Shown piece by piece: positions 45,002-47,833 of a DNA stretch of 59,833 nt. Each line of letters begins with the position of its first letter. The first letter of the stretch is position 1. The stretch lies in IMG/VR virus record IMGVR_UViG_3300020185_000003. One strand, written 5' to 3'. Made by a program: the position numbers and the translations under genes. A model generated the notes under the pieces. The model worked only from the letters and a program-made list of their open reading frames with translations, ran no database searches and was not told the origin of the DNA. This stretch comes from a virus.

Positions 45002-45022
45002 TTTGATTTTATTTTATTAGTT

Positions 45023-45075
45023 TCCTGTTTCGTCCTTTGGGACTCATCAGCACAGGCACTCACCTGTGGACAGGA
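45023..45075 (-). ncRNA. hammerhead self-cleaving ribozyme, stem III open (type III)
   Basis: The minus RNA reads UCCUGUC|CACAGG-UGAGUG-CCUGUG-CUGAUGA-GUCC-CAAA-GGAC-GAA-ACAGGA. The complete invariant core is present, along with a GUC cleavage triplet, the A15.1:U16.1 and G10.1:C11.1 pairs, and three perfectly paired stems. Confidence 0.85.
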
Positions 45076-45080
45076 GGATA

Positions 45081-45096
45081 GTGTCCTTGAAGACAC
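45081..45096. repeat. PAL16 copy J (GTGTCCTTGAAGACAC, one mismatch; sense strand same variant as copy D)
   Basis: Intergenic. The stem extends to 12 bp (45076..45101) and directly abuts the hammerhead. Confidence 0.9.
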
Positions 45097-45109: not shown

Positions 45110-46024
45110 TTAATATCTCCTTGGCGCAGGAGTCTCGGTGAATCCTAACCACCCTTTGATATCCTCGGTCACCTTGCCTGTCTTGATATACTTTTGGAAT
45201 GATACTGCCAAGGTCATTATCTCGTTCACCTTGTCTTGGTTTCTGTCGTACATCGCCATCAGGATTGGTTCTGCCTTCTTCAAGAAAGTCTTGAAATTTC
45301 CGTTTGGATTGTTTACGCTGAAATCAACCAATTCATACATCATCTCGTATCTGCGCATCATCTGTTTTACTGATTGGAATCGGGCAGGAAGACGAAATTC
45401 AATCACGCTACCTTTGTTTAAGCATACGTGATACTTGTTTGAATTGCCTACAGGTAATCCTGCCCAATCTTCTCTATTCTCCTGCATACGGATATTGAAA
45501 CGGCAGTAAGGATTTTGCAATCTGTGACGATACATTGCGTACAGGATGCCTGAATTTTTGCGTACTAAATTCATCAATTCACTACCATCCATCCCTTCTA
45601 CGGCAAGAGAAATGTGTCCGCCACATCGCTTGTCTGATGGGCTATTGGCATCCTCAATAATTCTCTTTGCTTTGTGCATCATATCGTAGACCTTGTTGCG
45701 CCATACTGATGCAGGTAGCAAAGGTAGGATGTTGGTCACTGCTTCGTATCCGCAAGAACCATCACGCTCAAATCCGCAAAGCAATTCGTATTCTCTTACT
45801 GCTCCACGAGATAATTGGTTTTTCTCAATCTCCATTCCGATTGTGAAACGTGAATTGAAATCCGAACCTACCTGCACCAAATTGCGCTTATCAGAATTTT
45901 TCAATTGGGCAATGTCCGAAGATTTTGCACCTTTCTGCATCTCACGAAATTCAGGTTTTCTGTGGTAGTGTTGAACTACTGCTCTGTCTGAGCGATTTTC
46001 GATTTTGTAGATGATACCTTCCAT
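45110..46024 (-). CDS. amidoligase (glutamine-synthetase-like fold, Amidoligase_2-type)
   Basis: TIGMEIEKN, GFERDGSCGYEAVTNILP, CGGHISLAVEG, NPYCRFN and GSVIEFRLPA follow the family motif order as I recall it. Confidence 0.7.
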   Translation of the reverse strand: MEGIIYKIENRSDRAVVQHYHRKPEFREMQKGAKSSDIAQLKNSDKRNLVQVGSDFNSRFTIGMEIEKNQLSRGAVREYELLCGFERDGSCGYEAVTNILPLLPASVWRNKVYDMMHKAKRIIEDANSPSDKRCGGHISLAVEGMDGSELMNLVRKNSGILYAMYRHRLQNPYCRFNIRMQENREDWAGLPVGNSNKYHVCLNKGSVIEFRLPARFQSVKQMMRRYEMMYELVDFSVNNPNGNFKTFLKKAEPILMAMYDRNQDKVNEIMTLAVSFQKYIKTGKVTEDIKGWLGFTETPAPRRY

Positions 46025-46057: not shown

Positions 46058-46103
46058 TGGGCAGTAAGGATTCGAACCTTATGTGTCACCGACTGACCTA
46101 CCC
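46058..46103 (-). ncRNA. tRNA-like element (acceptor stem + D-like arm + T arm, no anticodon arm)
   Basis: The minus RNA reads GGGUAG-GUC-AGUCGGU-GAC-ACA-UAAGG-UUCGAAU-CCUUA-CUGCCC-A. It has a 6-bp acceptor stem (one G.U pair), a canonical T arm and loop, and a D-like loop with GG. Confidence 0.6.
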
Positions 46104-46105
46104 TT

Positions 46106-46121
46106 GTGTCTTTGAAGACAC
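46106..46121. repeat. PAL16 copy K (GTGTCTTTGAAGACAC, exact)
   Basis: Intergenic, 3 nt after stop 46125 and 2 nt before the tRNA-like element (minus sense). Confidence 0.95.
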
Positions 46122-46124
46122 TTT

Positions 46125-46769
46125 TTACATTCCCATTGATGATTGAAGAAACGCAATTGCTTGAGCAATTTCTGAAGCATCGTTTCGGGTAATCAATTCG
46201 CCATTGGCATTGATGCGGACTGCAATGTTTCGTCCTTCGGGATTCTTCATTGACATTGTGAAGATTGTCTCAACACGTTCCTGTACTTCTGCTGACTCAA
46301 TTGCTTCCTCAGAAATCTCCTCTTCTCCTGTCTCCTCGTTGATGATTGTTTCAACGTCATTGAAATCCTGTGCGAATTTCAACAGACCTGCTAAACTTCT
46401 GTCAACGTCTTTGCCTTGGGCATCTGCTTCGTCACATTTGGTATTGAATGCATCGACAATTTGCTCTGACAATTTCCCTGCTTTAAGTACTTTGTAGAAG
46501 AAAGACTTCTGCCATCCGAAGACCTTTTGACCGAATTCCTCTTTGCTCCACGATAATCCTGCATCCTGCATTTTGAATTTACCTTCCTCAGAAGTGAACC
46601 ATTGTTCTGCTTTTACGACCAATTTTGCCATATTCAAAGTATGACCGAATTTGCTCTTGTGAGCATTGGTAATTTGTCTTTGAATGCGTTTGATGTCATT
46701 CAAGTTTAATGCATTCTTGATTTCTGATTGTGAAAGGAATGCCGTTTCGATTGATAAAAGATTGCTCAT
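46125..46769 (-). CDS. hypothetical early protein (first gene of the leftward block)
   Basis: 214-aa ORF. No motif was recognised. Confidence 0.65.
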   Translation of the reverse strand: MSNLLSIETAFLSQSEIKNALNLNDIKRIQRQITNAHKSKFGHTLNMAKLVVKAEQWFTSEEGKFKMQDAGLSWSKEEFGQKVFGWQKSFFYKVLKAGKLSEQIVDAFNTKCDEADAQGKDVDRSLAGLLKFAQDFNDVETIINEETGEEEISEEAIESAEVQERVETIFTMSMKNPEGRNIAVRINANGELITRNDASEIAQAIAFLQSSMGM

Positions 46770-46850: not shown

Positions 46851-46858
46851 CAAATATA
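46851..46858 (-). promoter_or_regulatory. -7 promoter box (sense ACTATATTTGAAC), probable leftward early promoter
   Basis: The complement is TATATTTG, 81 nt upstream of ATG 46769. Confidence 0.55.
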
Positions 46859-46963: not shown

Positions 46964-46979
46964 GTGTCTTCAAAGACAC
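46964..46979. repeat. PAL16 copy L (GTGTCTTCAAAGACAC, exact)
   Basis: Lies between the divergent promoter boxes (46851 minus, 47336 plus), apparently outside both transcription units. Confidence 0.95.
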
Positions 46980-46995: not shown

Positions 46996-47035
46996 GACAG
47001 GAACGCACACAGGAAGACAGGAACGCACACAGGAA
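46996..47035. repeat. perfect tandem 20-mer x2 (GACAGGAACGCACACAGGAA)
   Basis: 46996..47015 equals 47016..47035. Confidence 0.95.
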
Positions 47036-47036
47036 C

Positions 47037-47054
47037 GAATGCTTTGCCGCATTC
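47037..47054. repeat. inverted repeat GAATGC-TTTGCC-GCATTC
   Basis: Read directly from the sequence. Confidence 0.7.
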
Positions 47055-47080
47055 ATTCTCTGTTGCTCTTTGATTGCGTA

Positions 47081-47189
47081 CGGGAACGGGAACGGGGACA
47101 GGCGGAACGGGAACGGGAACAGGGGAACAGGGGACACAGGACGCAGGACGGATGCAGGCAGGACGCAGGACGCAGGCAGGCAGGTAGGT
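47081..47189. repeat. GC-rich, almost T-free tract of degenerate short tandem repeats (CGGGAA, CAGGGGAA, CGCAGGA, CAGG) with many G3-4 runs
   Basis: Only two T in about 109 nt of the plus strand. The composition contrasts sharply with the AT-rich genome. Confidence 0.9.
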
Positions 47190-47725: not shown

Positions 47726-47758
47726 GGGGGGGACTATTCGCAGGTCCCCCCTTTTTTT
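47726..47758 (+). terminator. rho-independent terminator
   Basis: GGGGGGAC-TATTCGCAG-GTCCCCCC hairpin followed by T7. Confidence 0.85.
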
Positions 47759-47759
47759 G

Positions 47760-47833
47760 TACTCCCTATAGGATTCGAACCTATAACCTATACATTAGAA
47801 GTGTATTGCACTATCCTATTGTGCTAAGGGAGT
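47760..47833 (-). tRNA. tRNA-Arg: tRNA-Arg (anticodon UCU)
   Basis: The complement folds as a canonical 74-nt cloverleaf: acceptor ACTCCCT/AGGGAGT, D arm GCAC-AATAGGATA-GTGC, anticodon arm ATACA-CTTCTAA-TGTAT, variable AGGTT, T arm ATAGG-TTCGAAT-CCTAT, discriminator A. CCA is not encoded. Confidence 0.9.

Follow-up and report, generated by a model that had tools for sequence, protein, structure and literature searches.

A tRNA-like element without an anticodon arm that changes places with hammerhead ribozymes between phage genes: a candidate intercistronic RNA-processing module

Introduction

What does a transfer RNA (tRNA)-like fold that lacks an anticodon arm do between two phage genes? The question is raised by IMG/VR virus record IMGVR_UViG_3300020185_000003, whose 59,833 nucleotides (nt) were analysed as a single stretch, hereafter the window. 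A 46-nt tRNA-like element lies on its minus strand, in a 100-nt gap between two open reading frames (ORFs) of the same strand that encode proteins of 214 and 304 amino acids (aa), and directly after a 16-nt hairpin called PAL16 (coordinates of all features are collected in Table 1). The slot occupied by the element is one in which relatives of the phage carry self-cleaving hammerhead ribozymes, and host tRNA-processing enzymes are therefore likely to be recruited here to cut messenger RNA (mRNA). Our preferred reading, to which we assign a probability of about 0.58, is that the element is an intercistronic RNA-processing module at which host RNase P/RNase Z would cut a polycistronic mRNA.

Structure of the element

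The RNA read from the minus strand, from 46103 to 46058, is GGGUAG GUCA GUCGG UGAC ACA UAAGG UUCGAAU CCUUA CUGCCC A. In RNAfold, a three-way junction of acceptor stem, D-like hairpin and T arm is both the minimum-free-energy and the centroid structure (-15.7 kcal/mol, 73% of the ensemble). The z score is -2.2 for the element alone and -3.25 for a 101-nt context that includes the PAL16 hairpin, where the fold is kept. The T arm is canonical for a tRNA, with a stem of 5 base pairs (bp), a UUCRANY loop and the G53-C61 closing pair; the canonical cloverleaf is not formed, there being no anticodon arm. An earlier note on this DNA had described the same 46 nt, with a 6-bp acceptor stem containing one G.U pair (it is U4.G69) and followed by a discriminator A, a perfect T arm with the loop UUCGAAU, nothing except ACA between the D-like and T arms, and a position directly behind PAL16 (the gap is 2 nt, AA); sequence and fold agree with the note on each of these points. 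The D-like arm that it described is also present and has GG in its loop, but the stem is 4 bp long and the loop 5 nt (GUCGG), not 3 bp and 7 nt.

The element is missed by standard annotation, that is, by tRNA finders and by Rfam 15. Neither ARAGORN, whose failure the note had correctly predicted, nor Rfam, used with gathering scores and locally with expectation (E) values up to 10, called it; their only report was a true tRNA-Arg(TCT) gene. Sites of this shape were instead sought by a structural scan. A site had to combine a T arm whose TTCRANN loop is closed by a G-C pair with an acceptor helix of 6 bp or more directly next to the T stem, and its linker had to measure 3-25 nt. The scan returned 1 site in the window and 0 in 300 dinucleotide-preserving shuffles; in 3.3 Mb of fetched phage DNA it returned 85 sites versus 3 in a reversed-sequence control. 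An exact search of viral contigs with the 46-mer gave no match, and a search aimed at the D loop (CAGTYGGT...GGTTCGAWTCC) returned almost only normal tRNAs, in which this string is formed by the anticodon stem and variable loop.

Conservation and covariation in related phages

The same phage is present in at least 24 public contigs, from assemblies such as ERZ807186 and JGI 3300020175, and the intergenic region is identical in the three displayed, which are independent assemblies. Distant relatives were fetched via the 214-aa protein. Three of the loci so obtained have, at the matching place directly after PAL16, an element built in the same way: GGGCAG GUCA GUCGG UGAC ACA UAAAG UUCGAGU CUUUA CUGCCC A in L519 (94% protein identity), UAGGUA GGUCA GUCGG UGACC UU GCAAAG UUCGACU CUUUGC UACCUA C in L560 (76%), and AACGAU GGAG GUCGG CUCC UUA UAAGG UUCAAUU CCUUA AUCGUU U in L520 (56%). 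The window and L519 elements differ at 4 positions and the structure is preserved at all of them: two positions make up a compensatory change of a T-stem pair from G-C to A-U, one converts the acceptor U.G pair to C-G, and one is a T-loop base. The coaxial helix of acceptor and T stems is 12 bp (6 + 6) long in L560 and 11 bp (6 + 5) in the other three, that of the window included.

Since MAFFT places the acceptor strands out of register when linker lengths differ, gapless subsets (A3, A10) were used for models and pair counts. When the window element is aligned without gaps to those of L519 and L520, 45 of 45 cells are paired, compared with 33-51% in slid controls, and 9 of the 15 pairs have changed on both sides. 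A covariance model built from these three sequences, R2, independently recovers two elements with different stems. One is that of L560 (E 3e-12). The other, at L549:1314-1360 (E 5e-9), lies upstream of a homologue of the 214-aa gene and reads GGUGAG GCUA GGCAGG UAGC AUA AGCGG UUCGAUU CCGCU CUCACC A. Judged by this pattern of substitution, the structure of the element is under selection.

Exchange with hammerhead ribozymes

Two intergenic slots of the window are laid out alike. Slot 1, after the 214-aa gene, consists of a stop codon, PAL16, AA, the tRNA-like element, and CUAAAAAAAUC...AUG. Slot 2, after the 304-aa gene, consists of a stop codon, a PAL16 variant, UAUC, a hammerhead ribozyme, and ACUAAUAAAAU...AUG. 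The leader motif CUAA(A/U)AAAAU follows the tRNA-like element and the hammerhead alike. The hammerhead has a full CUGAUGA...GAAA core and a GUC site, and the cut is predicted after GUC, between CUCCUGUC and CACAGG. Its score against RF00008 is 47.1 bits (E 8e-10 for the region, 3e-7 window-wide), just under the gathering score of 48.5, so standard annotation would miss the ribozyme. No hammerhead core (CUGANGA...GAAA) is present in 46058-46130, the region of the tRNA-like element.

When relatives were searched for the hammerhead core (CUGANGA, stem II, GAAA), hammerheads were found throughout, usually several per locus (up to 3-4 within a few kb in L007, L021, L022 and L026) and mostly directly 3' of PAL16. 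Among 330 distinct PAL16 contexts, which are strand-specific, each copy being read on both strands, a hammerhead comes next in 41 and a tRNA-like element in 9, the latter after a gap of 1-5 nt. Slot 1 holds a tRNA-like element with a D arm in the window, L519, L560 and L520, a tRNA-like element with only a D loop in L017, L533, L536 and L545, and a type I hammerhead in L022 (2827-2885) and L532 (~2126-2180). All three designs put the predicted cut at most ~12 nt beyond the 3' side of the upstream hairpin; this hairpin is PAL16 except in L532. PAL16 itself forms stem III of the hammerhead in L022, a site whose best Rfam match is RAGATH-1-hammerhead (E 0.015). Slot 2 holds a tRNA-like element in L017, L550 and L551, and a hammerhead in most relatives. 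We conclude that tRNA-like elements and hammerheads interchange in both slots.

Closed three-way junctions of another kind, with an acceptor-like stem and two hairpins and without the T-loop consensus, were seen in L540 and L549 (slot 1, after PAL16) and in L541. One of them reads UAGGGU GCUAUAGAUAGC CUAAG AAUGG-AGCGUAA-CCAUU ACCCUA. These junctions may be further module types.

A wider class of anticodon-less minihelices

The elements with only a D loop belong to a larger population, referred to here as AAUGGUU-type minihelices. The pattern AATGGTT-N(2-12)-GTTCGAWTC, which itself specifies no stem, matched at least 120 viral contigs, and among the matches listed 71 of 129 are flanked directly by an acceptor helix of at least 5 bp. 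With a narrow pattern, the class is found in at least ~70 viral contigs. Bacterial genomes of several phyla carry the pattern too, with flanking helices in 47 of 124 matches. In 44 non-redundant elements, the acceptor and T helices add up to 12 bp (n = 20), 11 bp (n = 13), 13 bp (n = 8) or 14 bp (n = 3). A covariance model, R1, made from nine seed sequences, gave 78 matches in 100 loci; in the alignment fitted to this model 94.7% of cells are paired, versus 55% in shuffles and 38-51% in slid versions, and 338 cells have changed on both sides, versus 97 in shuffles. Among the tRNA-like elements, the loops (GUCGG, UUCGAxU, AAUGGUU) are strongly conserved and the stems vary freely.

The minihelices are intergenic and share the orientation of the flanking genes. 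Many lie 7-60 nt upstream of a start codon, upstream stop codons being about equally close, and hairpins directly upstream of them are enriched (p = 1e-4 versus shuffles). No protein family is common to their neighbours (59 proteins, with scattered PHROGs that include four different HNH endonuclease families), which fits a dependence on host enzymes. In L108:70-3170, seven minihelices alternate with short genes, i.e., the punctuation is gene by gene. On the minus strand of L121 (~940-1780), six near-identical minihelices stand in tandem, ~150 bp apart, in A/C-rich non-coding DNA with a terminator-like hairpin at the end. A cultured and annotated phage, Streptococcus phage SA-TP2 (L512, PQ571305.1 20337-21023), has unannotated minihelices in a 690-bp gap between its replication-module genes and its late regulator/terminase genes. 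Minihelices of the SA-TP2 type were also noticed in a Streptococcus genome contig (L465), and AAUGGUU-type minihelices with acceptor helices in cellular genomes of distant phyla that include Haloferax marinum, an archaeon (L429), Corynebacterium (L401, L458), Catenuloplanes (L468) and Microcoleus (L460).

No family of Rfam 15 covers the class: a gathering-score scan of 15 loci found tRNAs only, and when the L121 array was scanned by E value nothing appeared but weak noise, either antisense or of tRNA-Sec. No description of anticodon-less tRNA-like elements in phages was found in the literature searched, whose reach did not extend to most subscription journals.

The window element is built like the members of this class, its acceptor helix lying directly against the T arm, with a single linker that bears GG and no anticodon arm, and the structural scan picked it up together with them. 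It is also placed like them, being intergenic, co-oriented with its neighbours and, as is often the case in the class, just 3' of a hairpin. Common to both are an acceptor/T helix of 11-13 bp and a UUCGAxU T loop. The AAUGGUU type differs in having an unpaired linker of ~10 nt (AAUGGUUNNN) and the loop UUCGAUU, whereas in the window element the linker is 16 nt long and contains a 4-bp stem, and the loop is UUCGAAU; forms with a D stem were found only in the window's phage family. Model R1 matches the T arm of the window element alone (46065-46081; 11 bits, E 2.7), with no full-length match. With R2, members of the class align weakly over their full length, the D stem being deleted (E 6e-5 to 0.05). 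We conclude that the window element is a variant of the AAUGGUU-type class rather than a sequence-level member of it. On a broader view, to which we give even odds, phages of many host phyla would carry tRNA top-half mimics of 40-46 nt, without a match in Rfam 15, in which a GG loop caps the T loop of an acceptor/T helix of ~12 bp and the anticodon arm is absent. These mimics would recruit host RNase P/RNase Z to cut polycistronic phage mRNAs and would be equivalents of hammerheads that depend on protein enzymes, the two being swapped freely at the same slots.

Proposed role in mRNA processing

Bacterial RNase P, RNase Z and the CCA-adding enzyme all accept minihelices of acceptor stem and T arm as substrates, and tRNA-like structures such as t-elements and mascRNA define the ends of mRNAs or long noncoding RNAs. 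We propose that transcription would run through the site to yield a minus-strand polycistronic mRNA with, in this order, the 214-aa gene, PAL16, the element, the 304-aa gene, the PAL16 variant, the hammerhead and the next gene. Within it, the element would fold as the top half of a tRNA, an 11-bp acceptor/T coaxial helix capped by an elbow of T loop and GG-bearing loop, which is the shape that the three host enzymes recognise. RNase P would cut between A46104 and G46103, leaving PAL16 and AA at the end of the upstream mRNA, of which PAL16 would be the 3'-terminal hairpin. The downstream mRNA would begin with the structured element or, if RNase Z cut past A46058, at CUAAAAAAAUC, and the 304-aa mRNA would be cut free at the tRNA-like element on its 5' side and at the hammerhead on its 3' side. 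The outcome would equal that of hammerhead self-cleavage at equivalent positions in the window phage and its relatives, and the stability or expression of the mRNAs may be affected. The earlier note had also offered a processing signal as its reading; of the possibilities considered, it is best supported by the comparative evidence (compensatory conservation, the hammerhead of slot 2, and the exchange in relatives).

The 3' ends expected here have a counterpart in the same genome. The tRNA-Arg(TCT) gene does not encode CCA, and its trailer, A followed by CAAAAAAA, resembles that of the element, A followed by CUAAAAAAA, in consisting of C plus an A-run; the host must therefore process such 3' ends.

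Several observations weigh against a processing module. The coaxial helix of the window element is 11 bp long, compared with 12 bp (7 + 5) in a canonical tRNA. Bacterial RNase P prefers U at -1 and G at +1, and the class departs from this preference, the -1 base being mostly A (29/52) and the first base G in only 17/52. Slot 1 is empty or holds PAL16 only in most relatives, so the cut is dispensable. Finally, PAL16 is not only a hairpin of mRNA ends, since 5 of its 14 copies in the window lie inside long ORFs (2856, 33124, 42864, 44178 and 48769), where it encodes, for example, VSSKTQ in GGACT and SLT proteins and CVFEDT in a GroEL homologue. The sequence of the 16-mer is kept across relatives despite a protein identity of only ~50%, and PAL16 may be a protein-binding or DNA-level site beyond its part as an intergenic RNA hairpin.

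Alternative explanations

The L121 array speaks for another interpretation as well: it resembles a tRNA operon and fits the role of a released small RNA better than mRNA punctuation. The element could be the gene of a small, stable, trans-acting RNA, excised and CCA-tailed to give a tRNA top-half mimic of ~46 nt that would titrate or decoy a factor able to recognise the acceptor/T arm or the elbow of tRNAs, with the mRNA cut as a by-product; a tRNA-targeting defence toxin, a modification enzyme, EF-Tu and RNase P were considered as targets. Strongly conserved loops beside free stems, and a class that spans phages and genomes of many host phyla without a common neighbour gene, are consistent with this. 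However, the acceptors and discriminators vary freely and share neither G3.U70 nor any other identity element, which makes a sequence-specific decoy or a charged RNA unlikely. The same slots are moreover taken by hammerheads, which release no tRNA-like product, and this substitution suggests that in the window's phage family it is the cut that is selected for. On balance, we regard a trans-acting RNA as unlikely.

Quite unlikely, in our estimate, is a cis-acting structure in the 5' untranslated region of the 304-aa gene that would need no cleavage and would stabilise the mRNA, insulate the translation of the two cistrons from each other or be bound by a tRNA-binding regulator. The position of the element, 33 nt upstream of the ATG and followed by an A-rich leader, agrees with such a role, as do the similar distances of many class members from start codons and the leader motif shared with the hammerhead. 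Yet the conserved features are those read by tRNA-processing enzymes (helix length and elbow), the equivalent modules of relatives are self-cleaving RNAs, and class members are about as near to upstream stops as to downstream starts.

The earlier note had named two further possibilities. One, a decayed and functionless tRNA gene that lost its anticodon arm by deletion, draws on the tRNA-derived look of the D-like and T arms, on a real tRNA gene 1.7 kb away and on tRNA genes nearby in relatives. It is disfavoured by the retention of all 15 pairs through 9 double-sided changes, and also by the structure-preserving nature of all four differences between the window and L519, by the recurrence of the architecture with unrelated stems in L560 and L549, and by the identity of the element in three independent assemblies of the phage; we consider it very improbable. 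The other is the core of a phage attachment site (attP) or an att remnant, a 3' piece of a host tRNA gene retained for site-specific integration, and we find it hardly credible. Phage att sites often hold a tRNA T arm and 3' acceptor strand, but the 5' acceptor strand and D-like hairpin, which an att core does not need, covary here with the 3' strand. The element always follows PAL16 at a distance of 1-5 nt, inside operons and in the direction of the genes. No integrase or recombinase domain turned up when 51 ORFs, each 90 aa or longer, were scanned with Pfam, and the note had recognised no integrase either.

Comparison with known systems

For an mRNA-processing module, the closest parallels in function would seem to be the t-elements of plant mitochondria, the tRNA-like elements of Haloferax volcanii, and mascRNA/MALAT1. 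The t-elements and the Haloferax elements are tRNA-like folds in longer transcripts, often made of acceptor stem and T arm, at which cleavage by RNase P and/or RNase Z sets mRNA ends, as is predicted here. They differ in belonging to organelle or archaeal genomes, and in having no conserved upstream hairpin and no documented exchange with ribozymes; their cleavage has been demonstrated experimentally, whereas that of the phage element is predicted. In the 3'-end module of MALAT1 and MEN-beta (RF01684), a tRNA-like structure lies directly downstream of a stabilising 3' structure; cleavage by RNase P gives the upstream RNA its mature 3' end, and mascRNA, the tRNA-like product, is released and CCA-tailed. 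The window element likewise is a tRNA-like fold beside a stabilising upstream structure, PAL16, and would be embedded in a longer transcript. Unlike it, mascRNA is eukaryotic, keeps a short anticodon-like stem and follows a triple helix rather than a 16-nt hairpin, and the window element has no Rfam match.

The tRNA-like domain of transfer-messenger RNA (tmRNA), including that of jakobid mitochondria, also combines an acceptor stem and T arm with a D-loop surrogate and has no anticodon arm. It differs in that it needs G3.U70 for alanylation and in that the remainder of the molecule lies between its two halves. The window element has G3-C70 and U4.G69 and no G3.U70, which excludes charging with alanine of the tmRNA kind, and it gave no match to the tmRNA clan of Rfam. 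The C4 RNA precursor of phages P1 and P7 and the M3 RNA of phage phi80 are phage transcripts other than tRNAs that host RNase P processes owing to their mimicry of the acceptor and T arm. These are single regulatory RNAs of particular phages, not a dispersed intercistronic class, and they share neither sequence nor architecture with the window element.

In position and role, the closest system is that of the tandem hammerheads that cleave polycistronic RNAs of prophages (Perreault et al. 2011, PMC3088659). Phage and prophage hammerheads resemble the element in genomic position and in the role proposed for it, and their tandem arrangements flank single genes (PMC3088659). Hammerheads cleave themselves, leaving a 2',3'-cyclic phosphate and a 5'-OH; the tRNA-like element would use host enzymes and yield a 3'-OH and a 5'-phosphate. 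The anticodon-less form borne by phages, its wide distribution and the slot-for-slot exchange with hammerheads appear to be new.

If the element does act as a processing module, phage polycistronic transcripts would have a second kind of punctuation, dependent on host enzymes, beside self-cleaving ribozymes. The role of phage hammerheads has so far been unclear; their exchange with tRNA-like elements suggests that selection acts on the cut itself. It also follows from the searches that an RNA class has been defined that tRNA finders and Rfam 15 miss. Its members, at ~42 nt, are compact natural candidates for RNase P/Z cassettes, akin to the engineered arrays of tRNA and guide RNA used in synthetic biology.

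Gene neighbourhood

The stop codon of the 214-aa ORF is 4 nt ahead of PAL16, and the next ORF starts at 46024. The window has 14 copies of PAL16 where 0.04 would be expected, and the hairpin keeps its sequence in relatives. A promoter motif of the Bacteroidota -7 type, upstream of the 214-aa gene, is a candidate start of the putative polycistronic transcript; a motif search that included this type recognised no promoter between the element and the ATG at 46024. An intrinsic terminator was considered for the element and rejected, the RNA trailer being A-rich and not U-rich.

Table 1. Features of the window around the tRNA-like element, with positions in the 59,833-nt stretch
Feature	Position	Strand	Remarks
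tRNA-like element without anticodon arm, 46 nt	46058..46103	-	sequence, minimum-free-energy fold and covariation
Acceptor 5' strand, GGGUAG	46103-46098	-	part of the 6-bp acceptor stem
D-like hairpin, stem GUCA/UGAC, loop GUCGG	46097-46085	-	
Linker, ACA	46084-46082	-	sole joint between D-like arm and T arm
T arm, UAAGG-UUCGAAU-CCUUA	46081-46065	-	5-bp stem, 7-nt loop
Acceptor 3' strand, CUGCCC	46064-46059	-	
Discriminator, A	46058	-	
PAL16 hairpin, GUGUCUUCAAAGACAC	46106..46121	-	ends 2 nt (AA) before the element
Upstream gene, 214 aa	46125..46769	-	no Pfam or PHROG match
Downstream gene, 304 aa	45110..46024	-	no Pfam or PHROG match; tRNA-like element at 5' side, PAL16 and hammerhead at 3' side
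PAL16 variant, GUGUCUUCAAGGACAC	45081..45096	-	intergenic slot after the 304-aa gene (slot 2)
Type III hammerhead ribozyme	45022..45076	-	4 nt after the PAL16 variant; Rfam RF00008
Bacteroidota-type -7 promoter motif, TATATTTG	46851..46858	-	upstream of the 214-aa gene
tRNA-Arg(TCT), no encoded CCA	47759..47833	-	true tRNA of the phage; ARAGORN, Rfam

The genes of the window indicate a podovirus-like phage that has no lysogeny module; among their matches are a P22-like portal, the crAss muzzle protein domain, a Sak annealing protein, a GroEL homologue and a GATase-II/GGACT fusion. Downstream of the tRNA-Arg(TCT) gene, at 47735-47758 on the minus strand, an A-run is followed by a strong G/C hairpin (GGGGGGACC...GTCCCCCCC). 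The 900-bp non-coding stretch between the 214-aa and tRNA-Arg genes contains, at 46996-47188 and beside the PAL16 copy at 46964-46979, short tandem repeats with the units ACAGGAACGCAC, GGGAAC(G/A) and CAGGACGCAGG, which may be iterons or a regulatory array.

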